A stretch of 61,657 nt of DNA, filler included, from Dugesia japonica (taxonomy: Eukaryota): assembly GCA_001938525.1 (NCBI GenBank). It is 5 parts of 5 records of this genome, joined end to end, with 100 filler letters (N's around TTAATTAATTAA, not from the genome) between each part and the next. Parts side by side here need not be neighbours in the genome. Positions count along the whole stretch, not along the records: positions 1 to 10,389 come from MQRL01549895.1; positions 10,490 to 20,055 come from MQRL01608113.1; 3 more parts are not named here. One strand, given 5' to 3'. The notes under the pieces are model-generated. The model had not been told where the DNA came from, made no database searches, and was given only the letters and a program-made list of their open reading frames with translations. The translations under genes and the position numbers were made by a program. Shown here piece by piece: positions 7,001 through 56,869 of this stretch (its first letter is position 1; each line of letters begins with the position of its first letter).

Positions 7001-9459
7001 AAAATATTAAATACTTCTTTCCAATTCCATCAAGTGAAATTATCTTTAAAATTTTATCCAGTTAGAAACTGCTATCGAGTTTATTTAGACATATTTTTTC
7101 TTGCTCAACAACCGATTGTCCATTATACATCTTCACACAAAATAACTACGTTGTATTCAAAACAAAATTCTTCCTCACTAATCCTCAATAAAGCCACTAA
7201 CGCAATCATTACACAGTTCATTACTATAGCACAAATATATTATCTTGTTACTCCTAACAATAAGGCTACATTATTATTATACCAATAAAACTAGAACATT
7301 CAGTACTATCTTTAATTTTAGCAGATATTCTCAATTTTCTCATACTTTGACATCACAAAATAGAATTCCTATGTTATCTAAAATTACAATTAATGATTTC
7401 AATAAACTGTCGGTTTGATATTCACCACGGCAAAATGCCGATGAATGATTCTTTACATTGACACGCAGAACTGATAGTTAAGCTAGGATGAGCATGTTCA
7501 TTAAATTTTTTATGACGAACCTAGTCTGCAGTAAGTACTAAAGATAAAATTGTCGTGTTAACTCTCCTAACGAAAATAAGAGAAACCTGTTGAATTCCAA
7601 ACCTGTGCGAGCCATTGAACCTCAACAGGCGTTGCCATAGTCATCTGCTAATTAACTCATTTGTCTACACTGTGATTATATGATCGTTGATGGCTAATTT
7701 TATTAGTGCTAATATTTTGTTATTTGGATTATTAGGATTATTACCATTACACCTACTATTATCATAATTAGCACTACTAATGGCCATCACATAATTATGT
7801 GGAGCATTACCAATTAACAAACTAAAATACTCCACACACCGATGTGACGAACACAGATAACTTTGAAGGAAATTATTACAAGCCATTGAGATTATTCATT
7901 ACCGCGTGTGTTATAGACATTTGAATTTCCTAATTTCATTCATAACTATTTTATGGTTATTATCGAGGAGATTATTAAATTGGTAATTGTTATTGCAATT
8001 ATTATTAATAGTATCGTTGTTCTTTTTAGCTTTATTATTATTGCAAATATTAAGGTTACTCTGATCACCACTGGGATGACAATTACTCCCTTGGCATTAT
8101 CATCATTACTTTTATGATGATTATTATTAGTATTATTATCATTTATATTAGTAATATTATTATTTCCTTATATAATTAATTAAAATGAATATGATGCTGC
8201 AATGCATAGTATCTTATTGAAATAAATTATATTTCAATAAAATGAATCACCCGATTGCACGATTTATAAAATTCACCGTCCGCATCCAGTCAATCTTACC
8301 TTTTAAGAAATGTGGTATAAAACCGACCTAGAAATAGTAATTCGTGCTGAGTAATTTTTTTTTTCATATGGTTAGAGCAATAATAATTTTATGAACAATT
8401 CTTTTGTGGAATTTGATACTTTTCGATGATTAAAGGAAAGATTCGACAATTAATCTACTGGTTATTCTTGTTATTATCAGTACTATTGCCAATAATTGCG
8501 TTACGATTTTGATTATGATTATTACCATTAAACCTGATTCGTGTTCTTATGGTTGGCGTCGTAATTAATTATTACTATAAACGATAAATTTAGAACTATC
8601 CTCATGACCACAAAGTGTTAAAATTTTAGTATTACAGATTCTAAGGAACAAACGCTTAAATCTTGGTTATAAAATGATTCCTACTCTTCGTAATATTCTT
8701 ATTATACAAAACTTTTATTCTTATCGTTAGCATAAGCAATATTCTAATCATTGCGGCCGTTATTACTCTTATTGACGTCTTTAATATTACTGTCGTTAAC
8801 ACCTTTAAAGTCATTATCATCATTATAATAATTAAGAAAATAAGAATTAACACACATATTCGAAATCAAATAATTCATGCTTAATGAGTTTAATTTTCGG
8901 AGAATTGAGACATTCCCAGCTTCCCACATTTAGTTTTCAAGATTATCTATCACGAACTCAAATTAGCTCGGCTCTATCAGTTGTTGATTCATTTGTTATA
9001 CACAAAAGTGGTAGAGCAACTGGTTAAGCAGATTTCGCGGAGATGTTCCCTCCAGACCTATCAACGGAACCGGGATAAAATAAATTAATTGTTATTATTC
9101 AATAAATTTAGTATTTATCTAATTAAATCTTCTTGATTTATTATTTTAAAATATGACCAACCACAAAGAGTATGAATGCTGTTTCCCCTAAAGAAGGGCA
9201 GGAAAGTTTTCAACCGGTGGAAAATTCGTTCAACCGGGATGTTGGCATTCTGGTAGATAGTCAAATACTCTCCCCAAAAGATCAAATCCAGTCGTGATTT
9301 GATCTTTGGTACCTTCGTTTGGTACAGTCGTTTGTAGTGGTACCTTCACTGGTATTGGCGCCGGATAACTATTATATATACCGGCCAGTAGTAGAATAAG
9401 TGCGCATTTGAACAAAGACTCACCCCAGATAGAAATTTGTTTTGCGGCTTCAATCTGAT

Positions 9460-10340
9460 TAACTACACACATGCTTCCTGCGATTAGATTGGTCGAAAAT
9501 TTTAGGTGTGATAACGTAATTGTGGCAGTAATACTTCAATTTGATAAGTCGAAATTGTGTGTGTGTGTTGATGACGTCACAATTATGTAATGATTGCGAA
9601 ATAATTTTTTTAATTGATGGCTTTTTATGATTTTTTTTGTTTAAATAAGGTGTAATTAATTATTTTTCTTTAAATTAAGTTACTTTAATGATTTTTGGTT
9701 AAGTTAAAGGGAATTATTTCTATTTTTGGCTTAATTAGTTGAAATTATTGATATTTTTCTTTAAATTAAGGGAAAATAATGATTATTAAAAGTAAATTTT
9801 ACCCGGGATATATTAATATTTGTCGCACAAAGCAATATTAACATTAAATATTTCTCGGACAATATTAACATTAGTTGCTTGGGTGTCATACAATTAAATG
9901 TTCAGTGGCTCATACTATTAGTTGTTTCAGGGCTCATACTAACAGAATTCTATTGGTTCAAACTCTTGGCTGCACCCGAAATTAGATTCTCCGACATTAA
10001 ATGATCTCTGAACAAACTATTCAATGTTAAACTAATGAATATTAATATTCTTTCAACGAATTAAAGATTTAATGTTTCAGGGTTTATGCTATGAGATGTT
10101 CGTTGAAAACATTAGTTGTTACTGGGTAGCAAACTAGATTTACAAACTAGACAGATACTAGAGGTGTCTATCGGTACGCACTATTGGCTGTAACCAATAT
10201 TAGATGCTCCCTAAAGAAACTATTCAATGCTCCTGACATTAGATGTTCTCAGTTCCATTAATATTAGCTGATCACCCGAAGAAATGATTACTATCCTAAG
10301 GAAAATCATTCTTAATATTTATGTTTAAGTAAAATTGCTC
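9460..10340 (+). repeat. Maverick-type TIR-like sequence (left; extreme terminus not seen) with degenerate subterminal repeat array
   Basis: 9833-9874 CAATATTAACATTAAATATTTCTCGGACAATATTAACATTAG closely matches the reverse complement of 16553-16594. It is also colinear with the second Maverick end at 23276-23810. Repeated ATTAG(A/T)TG(T/C)T motifs run through 9870-10270. Confidence 0.6.
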
Positions 10341-10667
10341 TTCGTCTTAGAATAAATAATGAAATCAGTATATTATTTGTATTCTAAGTNNNNNNNNNNN
10401 NNNNNNNNNNNNNNNNNNNNNNNNNNNNNNNNNTTAATTAATTAANNNNNNNNNNNNNNNNNNNNNNNNNNNNNNNNNNNNNNNNNNNNTTTTATTTTAA
10501 ATGAATTCTGTAAAACGATCAATGGTTATGTTCAACAATTATTCTCGCAATAATTGCAATTGTTTGTTTTTAACATTCTATTTTCAATTAAGTCCTAAGA
10601 AAAACAACTCGATCATTTATACTGCCTAATTCATTATTTCTTTCAAGGTCAAATTATTTCTAAACAA

Positions 10668-10920
10668 TAATGGAATCCAGATTAAGCTTTTTGGAAGAAA
10701 ACTTATTTCAAAATTATATTAGACGCTTGAAAATGTAACTGAAGTACAAAGATAATTTAGGAGGAAGTTTCAAAGACTTAGAATGTTTGAAAAGAACAAT
10801 CTGGATGATCGCTGGTTTTTTTAAAAAAAATCGAAAATCTGAAAGAAACCCATCAAAATCCCAAGCTCAGAAATCTTAATGTTAAAATAAAAATTAAATC
10901 TTCATTTTTGGAACTATTTG
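10668..10920 (+). mobile_element. Tc1/mariner-superfamily transposase N-terminal HTH fragment
   Basis: ENVTEVQR*FRRKFQ motif typical of DUF4817-type transposase HTH; heavily deleted. Confidence 0.4.
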
Positions 10921-11821
10921 GCAACTAGAAATTTTTAAATTGGATTTTTTCTATCCATTATATTGAGTTCAATTATTTATTTGATTATAATAAAAATGAA
11001 GTAAAAATGACGATTTAGTCACATAGCCAGGACAAAAATCGGAATAATTATCATATATGAAAATAATTATTCAAAAATCTATACAACATCCGGAGAAATA
11101 AGGCAAAGAATCTCAATGATTGCACGAATATGAGTAATTGAATCTGAAATTAGAGGAAGATAATATTGACAATTAAATCAGAAAGGTTTCTTTTAATGTT
11201 CCGAGTTTATTGATCAAATAAAGAGAAAGTTGGTTCAATTAATGACAAGATTTAAAAATATAACACTAGAAAATAGTTGGAAAAAAAGATGATGACCAGA
11301 TTTTGGTGCAATTATATTTGTATTATTGTTAGGGTATTAATAAAATATATAATATAATCAAATTAATATTTTCTTTAGATTTACGTATTAATATGACAAC
11401 TTTCAATATTTGGGAGATAGTTTATAATCCTAACATTTCAGGAATTCTGTAATAAAGTTGACAAACACTTTAAACTTTAGAGTTCGTATTTGTTTGAAAT
11501 GGTATCAGAAAGAAAAACTGCATGATTACAGGAGAAAATAATTTAATGCATCATGTTCTTCCAATCCCTGCATTGTCAAAATAATAGTTTAGGCGTTACA
11601 GTGTATTATTAATGGGCATTTAAATCTATCTGATTCTGTTGATTATTTTATAGATTTTATTGATACATCAATAGATGGAGAAATCGATAAATATTTATTC
11701 TTTTTATTCTTTTTTATTCCTAAGGAGTGCACTGCCTTACATACAGTTTTCCTACAAAGTATTGCAATTCTTCCACGGCTTGACTAGTACTATAAAATGA
11801 GATGAAATCTGGATTAGACAT

Positions 11822-12855
11822 TTTTTTTCGAAAATGTAGTGTTAAATGAGTTTTTGAGTCTTAGACAAAATTGATTAAATTTCCGTTATCATCTCGTATA
11901 TTGATTTCAATATTGTTTATACACGATGTGGATATTAGTAAATACATTAGATCTTCAACAATTATTTGGACCACTTGATTATCTTCATACTTTTCCCACC
12001 ATATGGATTTCAACAGAGGAACACTAACATAGCAATAACAAGTTCAACAATGCTACTATAGATGAAAATTTGCTGATGATAATTCAACAATTTCAGTTTC
12101 TTAGGTGCAGTGAATTCAATAGCTCCTTGAGCTGCAATTATATCACCCCTGAAATACCTTTGATTGAATAATCCTACGGTTTTTGTTAGAATTCCATCAA
12201 ATTTTACACTTTAAACATTAACTAACAACGAAAATCTGAATGGTTCATCCTTTTTCAGATAAAGAGTTTTAAATATATCAAAACAATTTTCCGCAAAATA
12301 TTTATGTAACTGTTCCATTTCCATTATGTACAATTCATCTTTAAACTGAATGACATTGACAGTTTCTATTGAATAACATAACTTTATTTTTATGATTTCT
12401 ATTGAATCATCGTTTTTAAAAGTTTAAAAGAAAATAAACGTGTCTGCAATTTCAATGTCGTTATTTAAATTCTCAAATCCAAATCGTTTTGCATCTTCAA
12501 GATTTTCAAATTTCAATTCATTTTCATGATGCAGTAATTTGATATGCAAGTTTTCTTTTTCATATATTTGAATGATATCGTCATCACTGGTACTCAATCT
12601 TTTTTCCTTATTATCAATTGTAAAAAGTATTTTCATCCATTCGTCATTTCCTGATACGTATTCAATATTGGATTTACTATAAAACGGATAAGCTCAATAT
12701 ACAAAAGTGAAATCCATCAAAGCCACTTCCCATTGACCGTCCATATAAATTGGATTCTGAAGTTCGATAATGAAATTACTAGCATTGTTATCCAGATGAA
12801 TAAGCGGACAAATATTACTCTGTAATAGTGTATAGAAATTATTCGTTTTGCTCAT
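11822..12855 (-). pseudogene. Maverick minor capsid protein (penton, single jelly-roll)
   Basis: N-terminus MSKTNNFYTLLQSN..DNNASNFIIELQNPIYMDGQWEVALMDF. C-terminus VPLLKSI..MYLLISTSCINNIEINIRDDNGNLINF..THLTLHFRKK. Both are typical Polinton penton signatures; internal stops are present. Confidence 0.8.
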
Positions 12856-12859
12856 TTTT

Positions 12860-13923
12860 TTCTTCTTTGTTGAATTTACTATTTGAGATGCTGATATCCA
12901 AGTAGGTTTTTGTATCCATGCCATTTTATATATAATTGTTTATAATCTCATGTTCCCTTTAATTTTATAATCCTTTCAATTCTAAATACTATTCTAAATC
13001 TTTCTATTCTAAATATTGGTAGTGAAATTACTTGTAATTCTTATTCATAGAATTTTCCTTGAATGATGTTATCTTCATAGTCTTTAATCGCATACATAAT
13101 TGGATTCTGTTTGGTATTGATTTTCGATATTTGAAACACTTCATCACTCCAATTACTATCAAANTTTTTGATGAATGGTGAAGCTGATATCTTTGAGATT
13201 CTAACATGATCACCAACTTTATATTTTGGTTTATTAATTACTTTCGGTTTTTGTTTCAATAACCATGATTTCATTGAATTTTCAGATGATACATCAACAG
13301 GTCTTGCTCCATTTAATTCATTATGACTTGTATGATTATAGCTATGAATTATTTTTGGTAACACATATATCAATGTTTTATTTCTAGTATGTACAAAGTA
13401 CTTTTTCAATACATTTCTCAATGTTCGATCAAATCTTTCAACATATGCTGTTTTGTATTGAAATATACTGAATAGTGGTTAATCTTGAGATGTGAAATGA
13501 TATTCTTGACTTTAGAGTTGAAAAATTCCTTTCCCAAGTCAGTTAGTAAATTATCAGGATGTCAAACATTAACTTGATTGCATCTTCCATTTCATTTGCA
13601 GATTTTGACTTGACTGNNNNNNNNNNNNCAAATCTGCTAAACACGTCGATACATGTTAAAATGTACTTGTAACCTTTATTAATTTTTGAATAAGGTATCA
13701 TTTCCATCAAATCCATTTGCTATAAATCGTCAATACCAAATGTTTTATACGCTTTTGTTGGAAATCCTTTCAACATTGGTTTGTTTAGACTATACGCTAG
13801 TTGACCCGATAGCCACTTTTGTGTCCTGTCTTTCAAATTTTGTGTTGCTTTCCATAATATTTCCAATCCTTTGAATTTTGCTGGATTTTTTGGATCTGTC
13901 CATATCATCTCGGTTTTGTCCAT
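12860..13923 (-). pseudogene. Maverick retroviral-like (rve) integrase with C-terminal chromodomain
   Basis: WTDPKNPAKFKG..KWLSGQLAYSLNKP; QMDL (D1); YKYILTCIDVFSRF; TDLGKEFFN (D2); YVERFDRTL (E); YNHTSH; KYKVGDHVRIS; NWSDEVF; GKFYE; chromodomain YIKWHGY..PTWISASQI. Frameshifts and stops are present. Confidence 0.93.
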
Positions 13924-14009
13924 TACAACAATTTGATGCAAATCTTAGATTAATTCTTGGTAATGATTCTAAATTTCCCATTGTTTATATCAAATCTGAT
14001 ATATATTGC

Positions 14010-14235
14010 TTTTGCAAATTTTTTAGACCTAATGCAGCAATGTAATAGGTATTAATGCAGCGATAAAGCCACAATGTTGTTTTTATAATATTTTCTTTAT
14101 TAATTTCTTATTCTTGGTAAATACAAGTGGAACCAATGACTTTTTATGTTTTTCCAATTCCTGTTTTCTAACTTTGCTTATAACTACATTACCATGAACT
14201 ATGTTTACAATGATCTCTAGTAAATCGTCATAAAT
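14010..14235 (-). pseudogene. Small conserved Maverick protein (basic, C-terminal QxxGF hydrophobic motif)
   Basis: EIIVNIVHGNVVISKVRKQELEKHKKSL..KKIL*KQHCGFIAALIP matches the small NxLxGNV...QxGGFLxALL ORF that usually sits between ATPase and integrase. Here it is fused to the ATPase end. Confidence 0.6.
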
Positions 14236-14774
14236 AAATTGTGTAAAGTCCATAAAAAGATATCCATACGGATTTACTGTAGCATCTTTGAATGAGTCCA
14301 AAAGAAATTGTCTATTGTTTGGATATGCTTGTCTTGCAAGAAAATCAACAACTGTTTGATCTCTTGGATTTTAAAATAGAACCAAGTATTGTACATTTAA
14401 ATTGCGAGTTCTATGTCCCCCTCCTTGATGAAATAGATTCTGAGTAATAAATATTACAGTCACATTACAATGTCTTCATATCTTTGTGAATAAATTGTTA
14501 AAGTTCTTTTCCTTGTTTGCTTCCCGATATAAATCATCAACAACAATCACATCACCTTTAGTTAATCTCTTGCTCCAATTCTCATCAAAACCGTTTATAA
14601 TTTTCATTTTTATACCACAAAATTCGGATTGAGTTAATTCATGTTTCTTATCATCTCTATGCCAATATATTTTGTTGAATTTGGATTTGATTTCAATAAT
14701 TTACAGACAAATAGAGTTTTTCCACTTCCACTTGGGCCGACAATTTGATAAACAGCATCATTTCTTAATTCCAT
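14225..14774 (-). pseudogene. Maverick FtsK/HerA-type (A32-like) DNA packaging ATPase
   Basis: MELRNDAVYQIV-GPSGSGKT (Walker A); VIVVDD (Walker B); LFTKI*RHCNVTVIFITQNLFHQG; LNVQYLVLF*NPRD; LARQAYP; FKDATVNPYGYLFMDF. It has at least two in-frame stops. Confidence 0.93.
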
Positions 14775-14856
14775 TATTGTTTGTTTTATTGTATCGATTA
14801 AATTATTGTTTATGTAAATGTATATATTCTTTTTTTAAAATTTTATTGACATAATT

Positions 14857-15273
14857 ATGATTGCAAATATTAATTACAGAGGCAAAGTTTCACAAGAGGT
14901 TACAAGAAAAATGAATTTTCTATTTGGCAGGCCATCACAAGTTGTCGAAAAAACTGGAAAATATACTTTAGTTTTCTTCAAATCCAGAAGTTGTAGAATC
15001 ATGGGATGTAAGAAACCCTTGAAAAAACATTTACAATATGATATCGTTATCAATTTTAAATATTCAATCAATTTAAATGATTTAGCAAGAAGAACTAAAT
15101 GCATGTATGAACCTGAATTGTTTCCTTAGTTACGACTAATAAAATTCAACCCAGCCTGTGTAAATGTATTTTAATCTGGAAAAGTAGTCTTTGTAGGAAT
15201 CAAAACATTATATTATCAACCTCAGGTCAATGTTATGATATCTGATTTGAATAATTTAATTATGAAAAACTAA
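14857..15273 (+). pseudogene. Intronless TATA-binding protein (TBP)-like gene inside the Maverick
   Basis: One frame reads MIANINYRG...TLVFFKSRSCRIMGCK (repeat 1, cf. TBP ALIFSSGKMVCTGAK) ...FKYSINLNDLARRTKCMYEPELFP*LRLIKFNPACVNVF*SGKVVFVGIK (repeat 2, cf. [43 protein letters not shown]). Premature stops at 15127-15129 and 15172-15174. Confidence 0.85.
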
Positions 15274-15454
15274 ATCATTGCAGAAGACATGATCAACACA
15301 TGCATAAAGCATGCACATTGCATGTATGAAGCATACACAGTGCAAAACGTGAACAAAGAAGATGACTCATACAAATTTAAATTATAGAAATATATAAACA
15401 AAATGATCATAAATCAAATTTTTAACTATGAGTTACACTATTCAATACAAAGAT

Positions 15455-15820
15455 ATGGATACAGATTTTAGTGATGATGATGGATTTTAAGAACATGATG
15501 AATGCGGTATAAAGAAGATAAATATCATGTTCATGAAATCGATGGAGTAAAAGATTAGTTGATTTAATTCCTTTAATTAATTTACTAATTGGTTTCTAGA
15601 AATTGTTAAAGATATTTTGGAAGAACCATTTTATAATTTAAGAGGCGATTCAGTATATTGAGCTCCTGAAATATATTGTTATCGTATTAAAATGTATACC
15701 GGAGTTGACATAGAAGAAAGCATTAGAATCTACTTTGATGAACCAATCAGTTGCCCATATTCTTGCACATGTTGTCAACTAACGAAACTTAGAAAGATTG
15801 TAAAACAATTTATTAAATAA
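15455..15820 (+). pseudogene. Decayed accessory ORF of the Maverick with acidic N-terminus and Cys-rich C-terminus
   Basis: MDTDFSDDDG... followed by ...IRIYFDEPISCPYSCTCCQLTKLRKIVKQFIK*, with stops and frameshifts. Confidence 0.35.
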
Positions 15821-15966
15821 ATCTTGTTTTCATTGTGTTTATACAATAAATTGTTTTGTATAAAATAATAAGACAACAGTAATAAAATACATCAATAATA
15901 ACTAAAAGACATGTTCAAATTAAAATATTTATTAACCTAACAAATCTATTCTATCTTTTTAATACT

Positions 15967-16373
15967 TTAAACTTTCCATATTGGTGCCACATTGCTATCA
16001 AATATTTTATATCCTAATATTTCTGCTGTAATCATTGTTTTACTCGAATTTTCATATGAGATCTCTTCTTTCAATATGATGAATGATGTATCTGTTATTT
16101 CTAATAATTTGTTGATTCTAGAAAACAATTCATTCAACGTTGATTGATCATCTAAGCTTTTTTCAGTAATGAGAATACTATATGTACATTTCTGAACTGT
16201 AACAGGTTTCTAAATCAAATTAATAATAAAGTAAACGAAAATAATATTACCTGGAAAATATAAATCATAGTCTTCTTGTAAATGTTCATTTCATATTTGT
16301 AGTAACTCTGTGGCTTACCACATTTGATCTCACAAGATGACGAATTATCTTTTGTAAGCGTAATGAATTTCAT
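15967..16373 (-). CDS. Intact two-exon orphan ORF (121 aa) in the Maverick right arm
   Basis: Exon 1 16373-16251 (MKFITLTKDNSSSCEIKCGKPQSYYKYEMNIYKKTMIYIFQ). 41-nt intron 16250-16210 (CAG|GTAATA...TTTAG). Exon 2 16209-15967 in frame (KPVTVQKCTYSIL...NVAPIWKV*). Confidence 0.65.
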
Positions 16374-16410
16374 TTTTTCTAAAAAATGAAAATATTAATA
16401 AAAGATTTGC

Positions 16411-16418
16411 TTTATATA
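16411..16418 (-). promoter_or_regulatory. Candidate TATA box of the spliced Maverick ORF
   Basis: TATATAAAG on the minus strand about 40 nt upstream of the ATG at 16373. The AT-rich background lowers specificity. Confidence 0.4.
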
Positions 16419-16552
16419 GTAGTAAGTATGTGTGTGTAATAAATCTTCATGTATGTTTCCAATTAAAGCAGTAAAACAAACGATTATTAATTTAAATCTA
16501 ATNNNNNNNNNNNNNNNNNNNNNNNNNNNNNNNNNNNNNNNNNNNNNNNNNN

Positions 16553-17048
16553 TTAATGTTAATATTGCCCGAGGAATATTTAATGTTAATATTGAGACTG
16601 AAATATTTAATGTTTATGTTGCCCAGCGGAATTTTTTATGTTAATATTGTCGCGGAGAATTATATTCAATAAATTTTGTTTAATTTAAACAAACATAAGC
16701 TTTTCAATAAATTTTCCATAAAGAGACTCAAAATTAAATTTAAACCAATTGAAACAAATAATCATTAAATCAATTAATTTAAACAAAATAAATAATTTCA
16801 CTTAATTTTAACCAAAAAACCATTAAAAAAACTATTTGAGGCAGTGCACTCATAGGGAATAAAAAAAGAGTATGTGAAGCAGTGCGCTCTTAGGGGAAAA
16901 AGAAGTGATGCGCAAGTATCAAAAAAAGGGGGGACTAAAAGCATGTGGTGTGATGCGCTCCTATCAAAAAAAGGTGTGATACGCTCCTATCAAAAAAGGG
17001 AGAGGGGGGACTTCAAGCATGTGGTGTGATGCGCTCCTATCTACCTAC

Positions 17049-17049
<1 letters not shown>
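16553..17049 (-). repeat. Right terminal inverted repeat of the Maverick with subterminal direct repeats
   Basis: The terminus reads 5'-AGTAGGTAGATAGGAGCGCATCACACC inward (the Polinton AG...CT terminus). GGTGTGATRCGCTCCTATC occurs 3 times (16947-17041) and GCAGTGCRCTCWTAGGG twice (16841, 16879). Confidence 0.8.
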
Positions 17050-17100
<51 letters not shown>

Positions 17101-17150
17101 NNNNNNNNNNNNNNNNNNNNNNNNNNNNNNNNNNNNNNNNNNNNNNNNNN

Positions 17151-17203
<53 letters not shown>
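17050..17203 (+). repeat. (AAT)n microsatellite spanning a gap
   Basis: Directly visible. Confidence 0.95.
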
Positions 17204-18332: not shown

Positions 18333-21177
18333 CCTAGTATTACATTAACGACCAAAACGATTATGCTTTTGAATCCAAGTACAGAGACAACTGGCAGTCT
18401 CTCAAATGTATGTGGCATCACATTCAATACACTTAAATTGATAAACAAGGTAGGAACACAAACCAATTGGTGTATGAGATTTATTAGCAAAGCTATTAAC
18501 GATCTTATGCGAAGTGGAAACAATTTTCAATAAAGAAAGATCCTTAGCAGCTTTTAAAATCTAGTTCTTAAACTTTTTAAAACCTTCAGAATAAGGAATC
18601 GATAAAGCAAATTGACCAATACAGTTGTATAAAGTGTTATCAGGTTCATGATTATTCAATACTTTTTCAGCCGTTTTATTGAAATTAATATTAATATCGA
18701 CTAATATTTTGTATATTGTCTGCGAAGTCAATGAATTTAAAAATTGTTTATTATATTCATTTTCTTGCAGTAACTTTAATAAATGTTCAATACTTTTAAT
18801 GAATCTTGAATAAGTTGAGGACAACGACCGAGAACGAGATACTAAACCCTTTATCATGTTCCTTTTATAAGCAGAATCACAAAAACTATTTGGGGTAACA
18901 AACAAGCCAGTATCACTTTTCTTTCTGTAGATTTCAGTCAAATAATGTGTTGATTTCCTTTCAATTAAAATATCCATAAAAGCCAAAATATCATTTCTTT
19001 CCTTCTCTTCAGTAAATCTAATATTAAGATGTAACGAATTCATAAAACTCTGGAAAGGAAAAACATGTTTACGATTACCAAAAATAAGGAAAACATCGTC
19101 AACATATCTTTTGTAAGTAAGAGGCTTATTCAAAGAATATAAGTTCATTCGTTCTTCAACCTAATTCAATAAAATCGATGCTAATGTCGGAGTTAAAGAA
19201 GAACTCATAGCTACCCCATCTATCTGTTTATACTATTCATTGTTGAACAGAAACAAAACATTAGTTGTTGCAAAAGTTAACAATTCATGAAAGGCAGATA
19301 TACTCAAATTAGAATGATCAATCACATTATTCTTCCAAATATCACAACAAAGATCTATGGTTTCCAGCAAAGGGACATTAGTGAATAAGCTAAAAACATC
19401 AAAAGACACCATAAACTCATCATTATTACTTACAACAGAATTTGAGATAAATTTAAAAAACTCAAAACTGTCCTTAAATTCAAAGTTAAAATTCATTAAT
19501 GGCTACAATTTAGATTCCAAACATTTCGAAATATTATACTGGGCTGTACAAACCATAGATAAAACCGGTCACAAAGGAGTTCCATTTATATGACTAGATT
19601 ATTAATCAATATACTTAATCAATATAAATATTCCTCATCTTTCATTGTTGGTAATTTTTCATTTTTCCGCAATTTATAGATCTTGAAAACTGACCATTTA
19701 AAACTGTTTCCATCTTGGCCAAATAATTAAAATAATTTAAACTCACTGAGCCATAACCTTTGTCAAATTTACAAATATTAATCCCTTTATTCACAATACC
19801 CTTCAACACTTAAAAATCACTAACATCCTGTTTCGAATTCTTATTTATATACTCAGTGGTAGTTTTATTTAACTCATTTTTCCTGGTCATAAATTCTAAT
19901 TTTTTATTCAAGTAATTAGACTTTTTCAAATAAATCCATAAAACAATTCAATAATAGACGGAAATTTAAATTTATCAAACTTTCTACTGCATTATGCAAA
20001 CTTTTAGCAGATATTTTAAAATCACTATTAAAGTTAATTCCGGCACATTTAAAGANNNNNNNNNNNNNNNNNNNNNNNNNNNNNNNNNNNNNNNNNNNNT
20101 TAATTAATTAANNNNNNNNNNNNNNNNNNNNNNNNNNNNNNNNNNNNNNNNNNNNATTATTATTTTTATTATTATTAATATTATTATTTTTATTATTATT
20201 ATTCCACACTCGATTTTATTTTTTTTATAAACCCATAAATTTTATCATACAAAATTAATATGATTATGTTCTTACCTTGCAGAGACATTCAATTCCATTA
20301 TTTTCTCGAATATATTCTCGAAAATTAACACAATTTGAAAATCCAATTTTCTTTGTGAAAGTGATTAGAAAATTCAGACTTTGTTTCTAATAAAAATAAT
20401 ATTTTCTCATCTTTCATTTCTATTAGTCGTTTTAGTGCTCATTCATTTGACAACCACTTTTCTTTTTTAAATAATAAAAGTTGTTCGTAATCCGCTCTCA
20501 TATTCTTACATAGATTTACAAACAAACGAGTAATATTTGTACATCTTTTGATGAAATTTATAAGACGTTTGGCATCATTTAAGACCACATTAAGATCTGG
20601 TGATATTTTAGTTATTGCTTCTCGATGAATGATAAAGTGAGTGAAAATGATATATTCATTTGTAATATATTTAACTTTTTCTACAAATCCGACGAACTAT
20701 CCCTTCATCGCTGCTGCACCGTCAAAACATATACCAATATTATTATCCTTCTTCTTTGAAAAAATCCTTAACTTGTAAAAAAATTATTCATTTCAATTAT
20801 TAATTGGCCGGCAGAACAGTAAATTTTCATGTATATTAAAAGCGTACCTGTATTGAAAACAGACCAAGAGTTTAGCTAAATTCTTTTAATATCTGTCGAT
20901 TTATCCAACTGAATAGCAGATTACGGATTTTCTTTAATTCTTTGTATCAGTTGCAGAATTTGAAATCCTTCTGGTAACTGTATCATTGAAGAAAGGAATT
21001 TTCCACAAATCATCTGCATACTTCCATGAATAGTTTCTGTAATCTGAACTTCTCCAATTTTCTATGGTTTCCTAGACTTTTCTATTATATATGATGCTTG
21101 ATAAGATGCTTATAGATATTTTTCCTGAGTAGAGGTATACTTTTCTAACAAACATTTGCTTTGATTTGATGACCTTT

Positions 21178-21366
21178 ATAAGGAAATAATAATAAATTAA
21201 TAATTAATTCAGCCAATATAAATCGATTAAATTGTAGATAAATATTTTTATGGTTTTATTCTAATAAAATTATATAATTGAGATAACTGAATGAATTGAA
21301 ATAAATTATGTCTAAAAATAGTTGTGATTTTAAAAATGAATTACCAATTGAAGAATTACCTAACAA
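21178..21366 (+). repeat. ~190-bp dispersed repeat inserted in the hAT transposase; other copies at ~495-560, ~6165-6225, ~31995-32150, ~34068-34256
   Basis: Shared ATGTCTAAAAATAGTTGTGATTT...TTACCAATTGAAGAATTACCTAACAA and ATTCAGCCAAT segments. The copy is flanked by duplicated ACCTT and splits the transposase at YFQSLL|RSSNQ. Confidence 0.7.
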
Positions 21367-23275: not shown

Positions 23276-23810
23276 AGTAGATAAATAGGTGCGCTCTGCA
23301 TCAACACTGCAGGATTTTTTGGTGCAGAATTTGATTGGTCTAAATATTTTTCTTTGTGGAGAAGTTGATTAGTCAAAATTTTGTGTGTGCGTTTTGATGA
23401 CATAATCAACATTTTTTGGTGACATAATCCATGCAAAACCACTGTAAATAGTATTTTTTGTTTAAACTGATGGATTTCTAATTTAAAGATTTAAACGAAA
23501 CTTGTATAAATTAAGAGAAATTAATAAATTTTATGGGTTTTTTCATGAAAACCCGGTGAGAAAACCTATTTTTGTTGAAATTAACCAAAATTATCAAATT
23601 TGCAGATAGTTACGAAAAGTTTCTCTGAGAAATATTAATATTAACATTAGTCGATTCGATGACAATATTAACATTAGTTGCATCATTGATGAAATATGAT
23701 GCTTCTTTCCTGATGAAATATCTGCTCAACCGGATAATTACCTACTGTCTACGATAATAGATGTTCCCCCAAGGAAATTCATTATTAATTTGCATGTTTA
23801 ATAAAAATCA
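23276..23810 (+). mobile_element. Second Maverick-type terminus (solo/truncated left TIR)
   Basis: Begins AGTAGATAAATAGGTGCGC, versus AGTAGGTAGATAGGAGCGC at the 17049 terminus. Shares GATTGGTC, TTGTGTGTG..GATGAC, CAATATTAACATTAGTTGC and AAGGAAA.TCATT blocks with 9480-10330. Confidence 0.65.
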
Positions 23811-24245
23811 TTATCAATGACAAATTATAATTTTAGTGTAAGGCGTTACAATTTTGCGTGATGAATGTAATTTTAGTGTTATGGATTATTATTCTCATAT
23901 GTTTGTTTAGAATGTTTACATGTTGGCTTATAATCTTTCCATGGCGGCTTAGACTTTTGCCGTGTTGGTTTATAATTTTGTATTATTGAATGAATTTTGC
24001 ATGATGGAATGTAAATGTAGTGTGATAGAGTACAAGTGTATTATGTTGGATTGAAATTTGAATGTAAATTTTAATTTGATGGACTATAATAATATTACTG
24101 TTGTCTATTAATTTTTACATGTTGGCTTAGAAGTTTGTATATAATATTAGAATTTGGTGAGAGAATATTATTTTTATTATGTTTGATTGAAACTTATTAT
24201 CAATTATGATCAATGCTATTGGAAATATGAAATCTTATTATCAAT

Positions 24246-24407
24246 TTTATAATTACAATTATTGTGAGAATAATTGTTGGACTTAACCATTGATCGCATT
24301 GGAGATTTCATTAAAATAAGAAAAAGCTTCGATCAAAACAAAATTTTTAAAATTTTTACAAATAAATTTTGTTTTGATCGAAGCTTTTTCTTATTTTAAT
24401 GAAATCT
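24246..24407. repeat. Fold-back copy of a short dispersed element with 40-bp perfect inverted arms
   Basis: 24303-24342 is the exact reverse complement of 24368-24407. ATGAAATCTTATTATCAAT is duplicated at 24227-24245 and 24399-24417. Confidence 0.85.
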
Positions 24408-31310: not shown

Positions 31311-34300
31311 TATTTATTCTGTTCTGTATTTATTTGTTATTATCTGGGGAATAAACATTTTCATTCCAATTCTTAAATAATGTGAAAATAGCGTTTTATG
31401 GAACAACTTAAAAAATGACAAAAAATCTTAGTTTTAAAATATTACAATATATACTTTACATCTTAAATTATTTTAAAAAAATGTCTAATACCTATACCAT
31501 ATTTATTGCTTTATAAGGTGGTAAGCATTTTAAAATGTAAAAATTTTACTATTGCTAAGACTATTGATTAAGTCATTTTTTTTGTTACATATCAATAAAC
31601 TGTTTACATTGGAAATATTTTATATGAACAAAAATAGTTCTTCAATTTCAATTATGGCGAGAATAATTGTTGGACGTAACCATTGATTGTTTTTCAGAAT
31701 TCATTCAAATAAAAGCTTTGATCAAAATTTTTTTTTTGGTTTTTCTTAAATTATTAATTTTTTTCCAGTTACTATTTTGATAGTCTGAAGAATAAATTCA
31801 TACAGATAAATTTTTGATGATGTGCATATTGATTTTAATATAGGGGAAATTAAATTAAAATTGTTTTAGTTTCAATATTGGAATTTTGAGCGTAGTATAA
31901 AATTGTCAGTTAAAAAAATTTGTAAATTAAAATTTTCATCTGTTATCAATTTGGAAACATATTAAATTGATTAAATTGATAAATAACTTTGTATATGTTA
32001 GGTAAATGTTCAATTGATTTTTTATTTTCAAAATCTCAACTACTATTTTTAGACATAATTTATTTCAATATTAAAACAGATATCTAAATTAAATTAATAT
32101 TCTATTTAATCGCTTTCTATTAGCTGAAATTATTAATTAATAATTATTTTCTTAATGTATGTAGAAAATATGTATTGTAATATAATGTAAAAAATAATTA
32201 ATTTACTAAATTTTGTAAATGATAGTAGCAGAATAAATTGTGTAAATCTATTGCCTATTTTATTTATTTTTATTTCTCTTTTGATAGTTATCCGGATTTT
32301 TGACTGTTTTCTTCTTCTGGTAACAAACAACATTCTGATCAAAGCTATTAATTTAATGATATTAATTTAATAATATTTTTAAAATTATTTATTAAATATG
32401 GAATTCTAATTGACTCCAAAATTTAAAAAAATTAAAAAAAGATCCCTATTTTAAAATCTTTATAAAAATAATACGAAATATTTATGATATAAACTAAATT
32501 AAAAAGTAAAACTATCAATAAGTCGAACAATGAAAAAAAGAAAAATATAAAATAAAATTGCTTATTAATTTTTTTTAATTGAATTTAATTCAAATTTAGA
32601 TTTAATTTAATTTTAATTAATTAAAATTATTAACAAACAAAATTAGTTAATAATTTCAATTTGGAAAGAATCTATCTTTGAATTTGTTGAATAAATTAGG
32701 TGTGTTAATAGTAGAGTTCTTATTGAAAATAAATTGTTTTCAGACTATTTATCCAACATAATAAATGTACATGAAAGTGCAGAAAATATTCAAAGGAATT
32801 CTTTTTCTTTACATAAAAATATTAATCCACATTTATATTTTTGATTAATACATACAGCTCAATTTAGCTTTCCTATTGTTAATGTTTTTTACTGGTCCCG
32901 GCTATTTTAACACACATCCGAGATATCCAAGGAATGGCAGTGTGTACATTTTTTTATCTATATAAGTTCTATTAAAAAATATTTATTATGTGCAATTCTG
33001 AAACAGTTTTAAGCTCTAGCACAGACAAACTAATTTCTGTTTTTAGAATTAATGACGGTTAGTTCCATTTTAAAATAATTGAAAATTTTCATGTAACTCT
33101 ACCAACAACTATTATTCGCAGTCATTAATCGAATATAATTCTCAAAATAAAAATTCATTTTTTTCTGTTTTACTAAAATTTTAAATAATTCGATATCTTC
33201 TTAAAAATCGACGATTAAAGTATTGAACAATCTAGAAAAATATAAAAAAAACAATTGTGATTTTTGCATTTGGCAACGATGTGAGAGCACTGTTGGTTGA
33301 GTTTGGAAGACTCAACGCATCATTAATATCAAAATTTGAATTCATTACAACACTTTATTAAATAAACAAATCAAAATCCCGTGTTTTCATTGGTGATCAT
33401 TTTTCAAAATCTAAAACTGTAATTTATTTATTTAAAATTTAAATTTAATTTATTTCAAACATTTTATTTATTTATTTAGAATTTAAGGCAATTTCTTTCA
33501 CCTTGAAAATTTTATTTATAAGAATTAACTTTATTATCCAATCATCATTTTTGAATTTTTTAAATTGAACTTAATTTATTTAACATAATTTTAATTTAAT
33601 TTATTTCCAACAAATTTATTTATTTATTTAAAATTAAAATAAATTTCCGTTTACTGAAAAGTTTTAATTTATCATTTAAAATAAATTTTTGTTAATTTAA
33701 TTCTTCATCAAAACTTTAAATCTTTCTTTTAAAACAAAAAAATTTTAAAAATATGATCACCAATCACACAAAAAATTTAACTTGCTTTTTTAACACACTT
33801 AAAAGCACAAAAAAACATTTAAAAAAAAATATTAATTGAATAATATTTAATTTGAATTAATTTATTAAGTCATAAAGTCTTAAAGTTGTGTAGATTGTTA
33901 ATAGAATATAAAAGACAGAAATACTTAAATAAGAAGCTGAAATAAATAAAAAATTATTTTAAAATTATCGAAATAAAATGATGGACCATAATATTAAAAA
34001 CTTATAACATAATATTGAAATAATGAGGACTATAATAATGAAAACCACTGTAATAAAAACAGATCAATTGTTAGGTAATTCTACAATTGGTAAATCATTT
34101 TCAAAATCACAACTATTTTTAGACATAATTTATTTGAATTCAAACAGCTATCTCAATTATATAATTATATTAGAAAAGAACCACTAAAATATTTATCTAT
34201 AATTTAATCGATTTCTATTGGCTGAATTAATTATTAATTTATAATTATTTCCTTATACCAATAATAATAAAATGTATTGAATTATTTCGATGCATTTGAA

Positions 34301-36579: not shown

Positions 36580-36824
36580 TTTTACAACTGCAATTATTGC
36601 GAGAATAATTGTGGGACATAACCATTGATCGTTTTTTAGAATTCATTTAAAATAAAAGCTTCCAATAAAATTTGATTTTTCGATTTTGAAAATAATTCTA
36701 TATTTCGCATTAATCTTCTTAAAAAGTCAATTCTTGAAGAAAACAAAGTCAAAATATTGAATTATTTTCAAAATCAAAAAAAAGAAATTTTGATTGAAGC
36801 TTTTATTTTAAATGAATTCTAAAA
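36580..36824. mobile_element. Short fold-back element with degenerate hammerhead; family also at ~10495-10562, 24246-24407, 31650-31730, 41220-41420, 44712-44860, 50325-50432
   Basis: Shared GAGAATAATTGT.GGAC.TAACCATTGATCG...GAATTCATT.AAATAAAAGCTT.GATCAAAA blocks, inverted arms, and a decayed HHR at 36728-36764. Confidence 0.7.
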
Positions 36825-38149: not shown

Positions 38150-39475
38150 GTCATGATCCAGTTCCATTATCTATGCACTGTGTTCCTAAAGATCATAAAA
38201 CAATAATGAAATGAAGATCTATTGTCAATGCTTCTGATAATCCGTCTGCATAATTATGCAAAATTATGGCAGATTATTTGAGATCATTATTGAATTTTGT
38301 TCCAGCACATTTGAAAAATAGTTATGAGTTTGTTGAACGAATTAAAAGTTATGACTGGAATAACGATGATCAATTTGATTCATTAGATGTAACAAATCTT
38401 TATGGATCCATTCCCATTGAAGTACCTGAAATTTTCATCGATATTGTAAGTGATTTCTTTGAGAGATACAAAGAACACACAGATATTCCTGAAATCACCT
38501 TAAATGATTTCCAATATCTTATCAATTTGTGTCTCTTCTATGATAGGATTACTGAACAAAAAAGTGGTCTGGCAATGGGTAACAATTTGTATCCTATTTT
38601 AGCGATGATTTTTATGAACTTCATTGAAAAAAAAATTATTCTCAAAGGTGAGAAGAAGATACATATTTGGTTCAGATATATAGACGATATTTTCTTTGTT
38701 ACTAANNNNNNNNNNNNNNNNNNNNNNNNNNNNNNNNNNNNNNNNNNNNNNNNNNGATATTTTCTTTGTTACTAATTCATCTTTAGAAAATACTTTAGAA
38801 CTAGCCAATAGTATCAATGATAACATTAATTTCACTTTAGAGAAGTCAATTGACTTTCAGATCCCTTTTCTGGACACCTTAATCCAAAAGAAACCTGGCG
38901 AATTATTACTTACCCAGTTGTATATGAAACCATTCTACAGTGGACGTATATTACCATGGAGTAGTAATACTGCCATCAGGCAGAAAATTGGAATAATCAA
39001 AGGTGAAAGAATTGGAGCTGAAAAACTATCTTCAAATGAAGAAATGAGACTGACTTCCTTCAGGTTGATAAAAAATAAATTCTAAATAATGGTTATCCAA
39101 ATAGAATTGTATCTAAATATCTATTCTTAAATAAAGAATTTAATAAAATGAAACAAAAGACAAACACAATTAAACTACAAACATTAATTACAATTATCTT
39201 ATATTAATGAGAAATTTACGCAAATCATGCAAAATATAATAAAAAAAATCAAAACTCAATATAAAAAACCAAGACAGCATTTTTGTGGTCCCAAAGGAAT
39301 CATTTGTGATGGTAGAAATATATGCAATAAGAAAAATATCATCTAAAAATAATATGCACCTTATGTAAGGATACATATATAGGAGAATCATTTAGAACCA
39401 TCCGCACAAGAATTAAAGAGCATCACAAACAGAAAGAAAGTGAAGTCTTCAAACACTTTCAACACAAACATGTTT
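38150..39475 (+). mobile_element. Penelope-like element (RT + GIY-YIG), decayed
   Basis: VPKDHK, SLDVTNLYGSIP, QKSGLAMGNNL, WFRYIDDIF, INFTLEK..IPFLDT, LYMKP; YIGESFRTIRTRIKEH. Confidence 0.92.
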
Positions 39476-40900: not shown

Positions 40901-41739
40901 TTTATTTTTACTTATTATCAACTTATCATAATCAGATTTCAGTATGTGTAATAATACCAGATTATTTACAAATGCAAAATTAATTTCAAAGAGTTTCTCT
41001 GTTTAAGTTTTAAATGTTTCATTTTGTGACTTATGTAAATAATGTAATAATCACATAGATGACATGCCACCCACCAGCGACGCAGGCTTTGAAGTCTCAC
41101 TTACGTTGGTCCTTTAATATGAATGAAAATTATTGAATTCATGGACATAAAAGATTTAGATTTAATTATAGGAAAATATAATTTATTTCTATCTTCATTA
41201 AATTCTTCATTAATAAAGTTATTCATTAAAACAAAGGCTTCGATAAAAATTTTTTTGTTTTTGATAATATTTCGAATTTTCGACTTAGTCATTGTCAGAA
41301 ATTGACTTAAAAAGACTAAGTCGAAAATTGATAGAAATGTTTCTTTTAATGAATTCTGAAAAACGATAAATGGTTACGCCCAACAATTATTCTCACAATA
41401 ATCATAATTGTAAAATAAAGTTATTACCAGATTTTTATATTATATTCTGAATTTGAACAAACATCAAATTGTCCTCAAATACATTTTGTGTGTATTTGTT
41501 GATTATTTATAATTTTGTTGAAGTAAATTGATTCATCTTCTTTTAGTTATATTTCTTAATAGAATACATTTTAATTTTACTGAAAACTATTTAGTATCCT
41601 TTTATATTATACATTCTTTCTCATAGCAGAGGTTTTGTGTTTTGTGAGATAAGATAATGACTTTAGGATCAGAATATTCTCTTGCTAAAATGCTTTTAAT
41701 TATTTATCACGTGGTAAGGCTAACAAGTAATTAGATTCT

Positions 41740-43006: not shown

Positions 43007-45272
43007 AATTATTTTTTTAATAGAAAAAACAAATGAAACGTTAGATGAATTACAGTATGCCTGAAATATAAATATATTATATTTAATCAAATGTGAACAT
43101 TTATATTTAATATTTTACTGGTATTTTAATATTAATATTTCGTTTTTAATATGGAAAATAATTAAAATATAAAATATATTTATAGGTTATCATTTTAAAC
43201 AAATAAATTCCTTGATAAAGTTTCAATTTAGGTTTATTAGTACTATAAATATTGAGTTATAATTATTATAGTTATAATAATTATTTTAATTATCAATTTG
43301 TTTATAGTTAGAAATTCTTTTATTGAACAATACATGAACTATTTATCGGAACTTCCATTTGTCAGGAAATTTGAAAATTTAAATCTTCCAGAACTTTTCT
43401 TTTGATAACCCTCTAAAGAAATGAATTGTTTTACATTGAGAGAATTCTGTAAAAATCTGAATAAATAAAAATCAGATGGTGCTAGATCCGGTGAGTATGA
43501 TGTGTGGGATAAGATTTCCCAGCCAAAATGCTACAATTTTGCGAGCAAACCTTTTCAGGCGGTGACACATTCTACGTAAATATTTTTTCGAAATTTAAAG
43601 CATAACGAAAAACATTTATTTAGATTTTTCTTGAAGATGTTAGAAAAAGATATAAGAAAATACAGAAAGTGTAAAAATAAAATCTTTTTATTCTTTATGT
43701 AAGATTGCAAATCAGCGGTAGATCAAGGAATTTTGCATGAGAGAGAGAGGGGGGTGATATAAACAAATTGTAACAATATTTTTATTTCAGTAGATAATTT
43801 AATTAATACATTGAAAATGTTTATTTACAAGAAACACACTTATATATATAATCTTAATAATTATTACACTTATACATGAAACAGTATTATAATTACACTC
43901 GCATACTGTAAGTAGTTTCCTCAGAATCTTCTATTTTGTTATTTGGTTCCATAAAAATTAACACTTGAGTTGTAANNNNNNNNNNNNNNNNNNNNNNNNN
44001 NNNNNNNNNNNNNNNNNNNTTAATTAATTAANNNNNNNNNNNNNNNNNNNNNNNNNNNNNNNNNNNNNNNNNNNNAATAATGATTTGGATTGAAGCTTTT
44101 ATTTTAAGATTAATGCAAATTTAAAAATAGTGCATGCATTATCGTTAATTTAATTATAAAAGAAATAGAGAAAATATATGAAATGCAGTTGTTAACGCCG
44201 AAAAACTGATAGAAAATCTAAATCTTTAATACAAATAATACTCAATTCACTCTTGAACGCTTGCACAAATAAAAATTTTAATAATTTTAATAAGTGTGTA
44301 GGAATTAGCAAATTAATTGTTAACGGATATTTGAATTAGTATGGGANGAAGAAGTAGATCCGATTAACGGTGGGTTTGGTTTGAATTATCGAATATTCAT
44401 TTCAATTAGTCATATTTATTTTTCTGTTTAAAGAAAAGGTCACTTTTATTGGTCTACTATTTTATAAATTAAATAATAAACTATATTTTATTTATATTAA
44501 ATTTTCATAATTAATACAAAGCGAAAAATCTTCAATTTATTATCTTTAAATTTAAATCTAAAAGACATATAGTAACATATTTTTCAATTATTTAACACGT
44601 TGAGTGCCACAATGTTAAAAAATATATTTCATTTTATTGAAATTTTATTTTATTATCCAAAAAAATGAAAATTATTTTGTAAAATTTTCTAATATTGGTT
44701 AATTTAATTAAAAAGTAAAATTGCTGAAAAAGACAACAGTCGAAAATTCTGATGACTACTAAAAAAATAATTTATAAAACCAAAACATTTAATGAAATTT
44801 AAGATTCTATTAATGGTTAAATCCAACAATTATTATCGTAAAATTTGTAAATGTAAAATTGAAATCAGTCATTTTCTTTTAAAGGTATTTAAAAGTAGAC
44901 TTAATGAATATCATGTTCACTATAAAGCTTAAAAATTTATCATTATTTTTTATTCTTCTATGGAGGAATCAGCATTATACACACCTACTTTATTAACGAA
45001 GGATAATATCAATCTTAGTATCAAAATTTTCAAGGGTATTTGGATTTTTTTAAATTAATTCCACATAACATAAATCTTCATTTTTCAACTACATTCTAAT
45101 TTACGAATATAACCACACCATAGGCTTATATTCGGATAAAGCCGCTATGTTTCCTTTTGATTAAAATAATAAATATGGAAAATTCATTACATCGATAGAT
45201 TATTATAGATAATCTTACTACATAATCTTTAATAATAAATATATTATAATATTGTTATTTTTTATATTACAG

Positions 45273-45641: not shown

Positions 45642-46867
45642 TAAATGTTTTTTATTGTTATATAAATATAACACTCAAATGTTTATTTGTCACACAAATA
45701 ATATTTTCTTTTATTAAATTTTACTTTATAATGGATAAAATTTTCAACAAAATAATCTAATGATAGATATTTCCTTGATATAAACTCAGGAAATGTGAAA
45801 ATATTGTTATTTTACTCTTCATTTTCGTAATTTTAAGTATTTGTTTTCAAATATCATTGGATAAATCCGAAAAATATAAATTTAAGATAAACAATAAAAT
45901 AAAAGTAAATAAAAAAATTAAAATAAAAACAAAAAAATACAAACGATTAATTAAAATTAAACTATAATAGAGTAGCAAACTATAATAGCAATAAGTAGCC
46001 AACAGTTAGATTGATGTTTGGTGTAATAAAGAATCCATTTGTTTGAATATACCAAGTTATATAGTTAAAACAAGGTTGAGCTAATCAAAGTTCATTAATT
46101 ACAGTATTAATTACTGTGAATTGAATATATATTATATATTCAAAAACATATTGAACAAATTGCTTTGATCTAAGAAAAATGAAAAAACTCAATTTTTTAA
46201 AACATNNNNNNNNNNNNNNNNNNNNNNNNNNNNNNNNNNNNNNNNNNNNNNNNNNNNNNNNNNNNNNNNNNNNNNNNNNNNNNNNNNNNNNNNNNNNNNN
46301 NNNNNNTCCAATAAAACCTATTGCGTATTCAATCCAATAAAATAAGATTAAAATAAATTTAAAGGTGAATGTGTCAATCTGATTATGCAACCAAATTCTA
46401 AAAGCCTCACACGCAATTCTTTAAAAAAAGTTACCAAAACCCCTGTTCAAACTGTAAATTCATTATTACTTATTTTGCTTTTTATATTTGTGCAGCAACA
46501 GGCATGATCTAAAAACCGAACTTTTCCTCCTCAATTGCATATGCTTGTTAAGACGTGTGAAAAGATGACGTTTTGTCTCTCCAATGTACGTAGCATCACA
46601 CCCCTTACAATTTAATTGATAAACTAGGTTAGCTAGCAACACTTTTGGTGTAGTAGATTTGTTGCTTAAATAAGGAGGTTTTCTTTGAAGTGAAAATTAA
46701 TCTAACTTGATTATCATCAAAATATTTCATGACGGAGCATTTTAATGATTTAGATTCTTCTAAGAATGGTATTTTTATAGTTATTTTTTCTTGATTATAT
46801 TTTATTGTTTTCTTCTTGGTCTTTATTTGATGTTGAGCACAGTTTGCTTAGTGTACTTAATATAGTA

Positions 46868-56785: not shown

Positions 56786-56869
56786 TATTTGAATAAAAAT
56801 TACTTTAGTAATTTATGGTTAACATGGCGTTGGGAGCAGAATTTAGTATATTTTTTATCAAATTTATTC

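Follow-up and report, generated by a model that had tools for sequence, protein, structure and literature searches.

Polintons (Mavericks) are defined by a polymerase and an integrase, usually accompanied by an ATPase, a protease, two capsid proteins, terminal inverted repeats (TIRs) with AGT or AG ends as well as target-site duplications of 6 bp (PMC6431247, PMC8097293). In the accounts available, the penton gene typically lies one gene from the capsid gene (PMC4028283), 96% of vertebrate Maverick loci are degraded fossils (PMC8097293), and Mavericks are abundant in planarian genomes (10.64898/2025.12.11.693146; PMC8532177). Here, a 61,657-nt stretch of Dugesia japonica DNA (assembly GCA_001938525.1, five records joined end to end; hereafter the window) was analysed with regard to a Polinton-type sequence, of which an earlier note had described positions 9460-17049 as an endogenous Polinton-like virus of ~7.5 kb. 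Our comparison makes it highly probable that positions 11705-17049 are the pseudogenised, one-ended half of a Polinton provirus, from which the capsid, protease and polymerase genes were likely lost by one large deletion and which is likely immobile today. The fragment is thus likely an ordinary genomic fossil, i.e. a decayed deletion derivative, and not a new compact or helper-dependent element.

According to the sections of the literature that describe animal Polintons/Mavericks (adintoviruses; PMC8097293, PMC8502044, PMC4028283), the family shares with them an rve integrase, a packaging ATPase, a penton gene one gene from the major capsid gene, an AGT-type terminus and decay by stops and frameshifts. 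Relatives of the window copy also have their double-jelly-roll capsid, adenovirus-type protease and polymerase. The window copy itself differs in having neither capsid, protease nor polymerase and only one terminus, and the TATA-binding protein (TBP) of ~150 aa encoded by its family is absent from the vertebrate Maverick gene list as given in PMC8097293.

Gene content and decay of the fragment

The relatives used for comparison (L001 etc.) are 80 metagenomic loci that were fetched with an alignment of integrase homologues. The element proper spans ~5.35 kb (11705-17049) and consists of a terminal repeat, TBP, ATPase, a small QxxGF gene, an integrase with chromodomain, penton, 27 codons of the next gene and a 46-nt terminal-repeat stub. 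The following features were assigned, including small open reading frames (ORFs):

16553..17049, minus strand: element end with terminal repeat that contains tandem units of 27 and 76 nt; the terminus at 17049 is of AGTAG type
16503-16552, no strand: 50-N gap inside the 27-nt array
15970..16209, minus strand: accessory ORF remnant, weakly like ORFs near TBP in L007 and L012
14857..15267, plus strand: TBP-like pseudogene with 2 in-frame stops, belonging to the ~150-aa family, in divergent orientation to the ATPase gene
14161..14774, minus strand: packaging ATPase pseudogene (A32/FtsK-like), 1 frame change, 2 stops
about 14038..14334, minus strand: small QxxGF/QxGG gene, broken, at least 1 stop, 41-46% identity to relatives
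13748..13981, minus strand: small Cys-Cys ORF with MG start and 1 stop, in a different frame from the integrase, whose 5′ end it overlaps
about 12874..13938, minus strand: integrase pseudogene carrying a C-terminal chromodomain, at least 2 frame changes, 3 stops, 12-N gap
11822..12924, minus strand: penton (minor capsid) pseudogene, at least 1 frame change, 4 stops
11741..11821, minus strand: small QxGG pre-capsid gene, first 27 codons, cut in mid-frame, 52-60% identity to L004, L014 and L015
11705..11750, plus strand: subterminal TIR-unit stub, likely deletion junction, inverted to 16872-16828, 38 of 44 positions identical

Tblastn with the intact relatives bore out the gene order that the earlier note had read from the sequence, namely ATPase, small QxxGF gene, integrase-chromodomain, penton and the start of a further small ORF at 11821, all on the minus strand, with TBP on the plus strand. 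Every gene is broken by stops, frameshifts or a cut, and six-frame translation of 11.7-16.5 kb yielded short open pieces only. The integrase pseudogene is 73-81% identical to P0001/P0002 (tblastn, E 1e-140), one of its pieces matches Pfam rve (E 1.3e-4; 42 homologues, at most 79% identity), and a chromo domain was detected in the relative L007 (E 6.5e-4). For the ATPase pseudogene the identity to relatives is ~70-71% (tblastn, E 1e-70), and the relatives' ATPases match Pfam Pox_A32 (E 2e-6 to 5e-6). The penton pseudogene matches a hidden Markov model (HMM) of the relatives' pentons with iE 2e-36 and 4e-24. The TBP pseudogene shows 60-65% identity to P0043/P0048 (tblastn, E 1e-51 to 1e-59; 23 homologues); its first piece matches Pfam TBP (E 0.0011), the relatives' TBP scores above the Pfam cut-off, and the profile of the TBP family matches solved TBPs (E 3e-23).

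The rve integrase, the packaging ATPase and the penton, together with closest relatives that carry capsid, protease and polymerase in the adjoining block, place the fragment in the Polinton lineage. An intact Polinton was not found in it, as there is no protein-primed family B polymerase, no major capsid, no protease and no pair of TIRs with AGT/AG ends and 6-bp target-site duplication; nor does it have both termini in cis, as a non-autonomous derivative would, or the intact genes of a satellite or virophage-like element. No ORF from any of the 80 loci matched the window outside 11600-16600 (tblastn, E ≤ 1e-4), and scans of viral contigs retrieved no relative, whether run with the integrase piece or with alignments of the integrase and of TBP. 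The window as a whole is AT-rich (~25% GC) and contains TAA microsatellites, many N gaps and transposon relics.

The MG-start ORF matches the same overlapping ORF in L006, L009, L010, L014 and L015 (E 1e-8 to 5e-6), and a Cys-Cys ORF of this type that overlaps the integrase start is conserved between the window (13748-13981) and L006, L007, L009, L014, L022 and L028; it is putatively lipid-anchor-like. The accessory ORF remnant is 22-24% identical to the L007 and L012 ORFs (pairwise E 0.001-0.002); the window piece had no database homologue, and atlas matches for the L007 protein were all below 0.9.

The missing block in intact relatives

In L007 (14.2 kb) and L012 (12.9 kb) the order is TBP, further sequence, ATPase, small gene, integrase, penton, small gene, major capsid, protease and an inverted polymerase, to which L007 adds a 154-aa gene before the polymerase. 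These two loci and L004, L006, L009, L014 and L027 resemble the window copy in the order from ATPase to pre-capsid gene, in TBP, in the overlapping MG ORF, in the TATAAACA box treated below, and in integrase and ATPase that are 50-71% identical to it. They differ in that their ORFs are intact and continue into capsid, protease and, in L007 and L012, polymerase; furthermore, TBP lies on the ATPase strand in these loci and on the opposite strand in the window. Seven of the 80 loci have TBP, eight a polymerase match and two both.

The major capsid gene comes next after the second small gene in all 12 loci that extend at least 700 nt beyond the start of that small gene, and the protease next after the capsid in all 15 loci that extend at least 450 nt beyond the capsid. 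A lineage without protease, considered since none appeared among the labels of ATG-started ORFs, was rejected on the latter count. The distance that separates codon 27 of the small gene from the start of the polymerase is 5369 nt for L012, as against 6340 nt for L007. The genes missing from the window hence form one contiguous block of 5.4-6.3 kb in relatives, which starts exactly where the window sequence breaks off, and one deletion therefore likely explains their loss. The 5.35 kb of the fragment and the missing block add up to about 12-14 kb.

Searches for the block within the window were negative, in agreement with the earlier note, which had seen no major capsid, protease or polymerase in 9460-17049; the relatives' ORFs and a capsid HMM now confirm this. 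With 19 capsid ORFs and 6 exonuclease-like ORFs of relatives as queries, no match at E ≤ 0.01 was obtained in the whole window, and the capsid HMM gave none at E ≤ 1. Three proteases of relatives detected no gene in the whole window (best E 0.39), and nine polymerase ORFs of relatives found nothing in 9460-17049 and a single weak match of 41 aa in the window, 29 kb away at 46010. The latter segment (46010-46132) is 46% like the C-terminal part of the L007 polymerase (E 0.001), contains a stop, adjoins an N gap and is a possible polymerase relic.

Gene identities were assessed in intact relatives. The predicted model of the L012 penton (pLDDT 88) matches the pentons of mavirus, Sputnik and adenovirus (mavirus penton, E 1.7e-7), and that of the L012 capsid (pLDDT 86) matches the double-jelly-roll capsids of iridovirus and PBCV-1 (E 3e-16). 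Proteases of relatives match Peptidase_C5 (E 1e-7, 1e-5 and 0.024). The L012 polymerase, the only one with a PHROG match, hits a PHROG DNA polymerase (E 5e-20), and a PDB sequence search with it returned no match. The long ORF of L007 matches endonuclease VII families only, and we take it to be a polymerase from its position and motifs; the relatives' polymerase carries an endonuclease VII insert.

Several other properties of the relatives were recorded. Host-like cargo identified with Pfam comprises a ubiquitin-conjugating enzyme, dual-specificity phosphatases, a TRAF/MATH protein, a RING finger and C2H2 zinc fingers (L007 225-719; L009 952-1260; L022 190-702 and 1545-2729; L004 1710-2168; L035 1754-2236). 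Two tandem penton genes are present in L001, L003, L007 and L068. L007 also has, between divergent-looking genes, a pair of neighbouring imperfect palindromes (90 and 74 nt) at 794-957.

Termini, junction and alternative explanations

Outside the fragment the following features are relevant:

9387..10389, plus strand: most likely one end of a second Polinton-type element, with its AGTAG terminus at 9387, a TIR-like part at 9599-9873 and repeated sequence from ~9450 to the gap
10390..10489, no strand: artificial contig-join linker (44N-12 nt-44N) that does not give the true gap size; same pattern at 20056, 43976 and 53102 (4 in the window)
10490..10563, no strand: terminal part of an unrelated host repeat with very high copy number (depth 5-7e5), matched at 7 other places in the window
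10564..11650, no strand: single-copy non-element DNA of ~1.1 kb flanking the fragment, no tblastx match to the 80 loci
17050..17203, no strand: (TAA)n microsatellite on the host side of the terminus, 50-N gap inside

The abrupt switch to TIR-like DNA that had been noticed earlier is confirmed and lies at about 11745. The TIR-unit stub reached a score of 43 against the outer right TIR, a value attained by 0 of 1120 control pieces (control maximum 27); its score against the whole TIR was reached by 1 of the 1120, an AT-rich one. Its identity to the right TIR is 86-88%, in line with most related contigs (90-95%). The stub is followed neither by the TIR's outer ~180 nt nor by the AGTAG terminus, and AGTAG termini occur in the window at three places only (9387, 17049 and 23276). 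Beyond the stub, 10709-11584 has a summed contig depth of 15-39 in three DNA runs, read only as unique versus repeated, as compared with 900 to 340,000 inside the element, and a contig of 1109 nt covers 10540-11648 with 0 differences. On the right, the outer TIR (16841-17049) is near single-copy by the same measure (32-38 in the three DNA runs), and its inner part is repeated; the right end is therefore not common to a large family of near-identical copies. Among contigs of DNA run X1, 1771 of 24513 are at least 99% alike to the fragment and most are 90-95% alike. RNA reads of X22 are mostly below 95% identity (33 of 2650 at 99% or more), so that they come from other copies and are uninformative about the window copy.

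The ~7.5-kb unit bounded by a TIR pair, as formerly proposed, does not hold, since the linker gap, the host repeat and single-copy DNA separate its two sides and the left arm is dissimilar to the right one. Still, one insertion from 9387 to 17049, with a middle that was replaced or misassembled and a gap that hides polymerase and capsid genes, is the first alternative to be weighed. The left arm has the correct orientation, contains a 41-nt stretch that is 95% identical and enters the gap with rising repeat depth, and the polymerase adjoins that end in L007 and L012. Against the right TIR, the TIR-like part 9599-9873 is 82% identical over aligned columns with many gaps and 68% identical by blastn. 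However, global identity of the two arms is 57%, the outer 212 nt score within the shuffle range, the inner part has no counterpart on the right, and the left arm thus differs from the right arm far more than expected for a TIR pair of such age. The six bases flanking 9387 and 17049 differ as well, so that the 6-bp target-site duplication sought by the earlier note was not found for this pair. In addition, 1.1 kb of single-copy DNA and the TIR stub lie between the gap and the cut gene. We consider one insertion unlikely. The left arm is most likely, on the basis of its low identity, its shuffle-level outer part, the differing flanks and the standard form of the linker gap, the end of a second element of a sister family on the neighbouring contig; an unrelated insertion at this place, which the earlier note had named as a refutation of its reading, thus most likely applies. 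Position 9460 was rejected as its terminus; the repeat does start near 9450, but the end motif common to three ends sits at 9387. The suggestion that the gap hides missing sequence is partly retained: it may hold more of this second element, but with 1.1 kb of single-copy DNA between gap and cut gene, that gene cannot continue directly into it. One contig in one of the three DNA runs links TIR position 16831 to 10491, which was taken as a likely AT-rich chance match.

As the next alternative, the fragment would belong to a non-autonomous Polinton family with an internal deletion, which the polymerase and integrase of a helper copied in trans and which decayed afterwards. Internal deletion, which the earlier note had proposed together with mobilisation by a helper, is supported, given the contiguous block missing relative to the intact loci and the small ORF fused to a TIR unit. 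This fusion is in the orientation of the element's own far TIR, the Polinton family is abundant in the host, so that helpers existed, and concerted loss of morphogenesis genes is described for some Polintons in PMC4028283. Mobilisation by a helper is not supported: contiguous DNA contains one terminus, without the far one and without a paired target-site duplication, the depth of the outer right TIR (32-38) is close to that of the unique spacer (15-39), and among the 15 joints listed of 581, none marks such a junction. A trans-copied family is accordingly quite improbable. A compact family of satellite type, with integrase, ATPase, penton and TBP as the only genes retained and with borrowed capsid and polymerase, is largely refuted and very improbable, for these are indeed the genes present, but all are pseudogenes, the last gene is cut in mid-frame, and the relatives continue into capsid (12 of 12 informative loci) and protease (15 of 15).

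Several points weigh against a one-ended deletion derivative. The left arm, besides being correctly oriented, is no more than 1.3-1.8 kb away from the break. Some codons overlapped by the stub could equally be a continuation of the small gene after a frameshift, with 4 of 6 residues resembling those of relatives; at the DNA level the stub matches the TIR (score 43) and not the relatives' genes (10-16). Between the right TIR and the genes there is a 50-N gap. Summed contig depth does not equal copy number, and with bins of 219 nt it is too coarse to resolve the junction at 11745-11750. The sets of 12 and 15 loci include several that are near-duplicates or stem from one sample series, and the independent counts are therefore lower. 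The complete relatives are metagenomic, with proteins 50-71% identical, so that the intact comparison copies do not come from the host genome, and TIRs were found in neither L007 nor L012.

A possible history of the one-ended fragment can be outlined. A complete TBP-bearing Polinton of ~12-14 kb would have integrated by means of its own integrase beside a TAA repeat. Through a deletion of 5.4-6.3 kb, the small pre-capsid gene would have become fused, at codon ~27, to one of the subterminal units of the far TIR; microhomology-mediated repair is a candidate route for this that would fit the shared word of 5-6 nt at the junction. The far terminus would also have been lost, and neutral decay would have broken all genes; deletion, loss of the terminus and decay may have come in any order. 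The locus itself is of little weight, as truncated and degraded Polinton copies are the rule, and its analysis removes a helper-dependent or satellite Polinton as a false lead. What is worth keeping is the parent family of TBP-bearing Polintons with a strand-biased TATAAACA box before virion genes.

TBP and the TATAAACA box

Copies of the box in the fragment are:

14807..14814, minus strand: one-mismatch copy of TATAAACA before the ATPase gene
13982..13989, minus strand: TATAAACA box before the MG/integrase genes
12937..12944, minus strand: TATAAACA box before the penton gene
11914..11921, minus strand: TATAAACA box, 100 nt before the cut small gene

Box counts were taken from eight relatives, namely the longest close loci, in which TATAAACA occurs 49 times on the gene strand versus 3 times on the other strand. 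Within 100 nt before the start it precedes the ATPase gene in 7 of 8 cases, the two small genes in 5 of 7 and 6 of 7, the penton gene in 5 of 9, the capsid gene in 6 of 7, the integrase gene in 1 of 8 and TBP in 0 of 4, against a background of 7.4% of all 100-nt windows; as the box was picked by eye from the same upstream sequences, this enrichment is not an independent test. Two more TATAAACA boxes are located in the accessory region of the window, at 15393-15400 (plus strand) and 15836-15843 (minus strand), and point at small degraded ORFs.

From these sequence patterns, we judge it an evenly balanced proposition that this Polinton lineage has its own minimal late-gene switch, in which host RNA polymerase II would be redirected by the ~150-aa TBP to a TATAAACA box private to the lineage; this box would precede the ATPase gene, the genes for the minor and the major capsid protein and the small virion genes, and not TBP itself. 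The parent family would have combined polymerase-driven replication, a double-jelly-roll virion and a chromodomain integrase with its own TBP steering host RNA polymerase II to the box upstream of virion genes. If the pair of TBP and TATAAACA works as a switch, it would show how capsid production is timed in a nuclear integrating virus that depends on polymerase II, and box-initiated transcripts would then be a marker of the times at which Polintons make particles.

Late transcription in herpesviruses depends on a TBP mimic and uses a TATT box, and nucleocytoplasmic large DNA viruses carry TBP. By analogy, these systems and the parent family may share the combination of a viral TBP-like protein with a non-standard TATA-like box on virion genes; the Polinton TBP differs in being a small two-repeat TBP, and the relatives showed no RNA polymerase encoded by the element. 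For the MELD viruses, whose genomes are Polinton-like, annotation of a TBP-like gene has already appeared in print (PMC8502044; preprint 10.1101/697771); there the legends of figures on non-animal datasets list TBP by name only, and the available text describes no promoter box. A literature search covering titles and the starts of abstracts found no study of a Polinton TBP together with a promoter box; Repbase, subscription papers, figures and supplements were outside its scope and may describe TBP in flatworm Polintons. The available text of PMC10748475 and 10.1101/2025.02.07.637071 has no mention of TBP or TATA.

Other repeats in the window

A third and again different Polinton-type end is located at 23276-23884, with an AGTAG terminus and a TIR-like part that is 72-75% alike to the other two in local alignments; no genes were detected behind it. 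The high-copy host repeat occurs in both orientations at 10490-10563, 24251-24319, 31643-31714, 36584-36657, 41340-41411 and 44809-44854 and is abundant in RNA reads. Decayed retroelement pieces with reverse transcriptase (RT) and RNase H (Pfam RVT_1 and RT_RNaseH_2) and a Tc3-like transposase piece were found at 53884-59023, 47628-48032, 18561-19160 and 38254-39085. Two further RT-like ORFs, of which one was searched in Pfam with no match, are presumably Penelope-like. Finally, two copies of a 190-nt inverted repeat, 92% alike and 12.7 kb apart, are present at 21177-21366 and 34068-34257.

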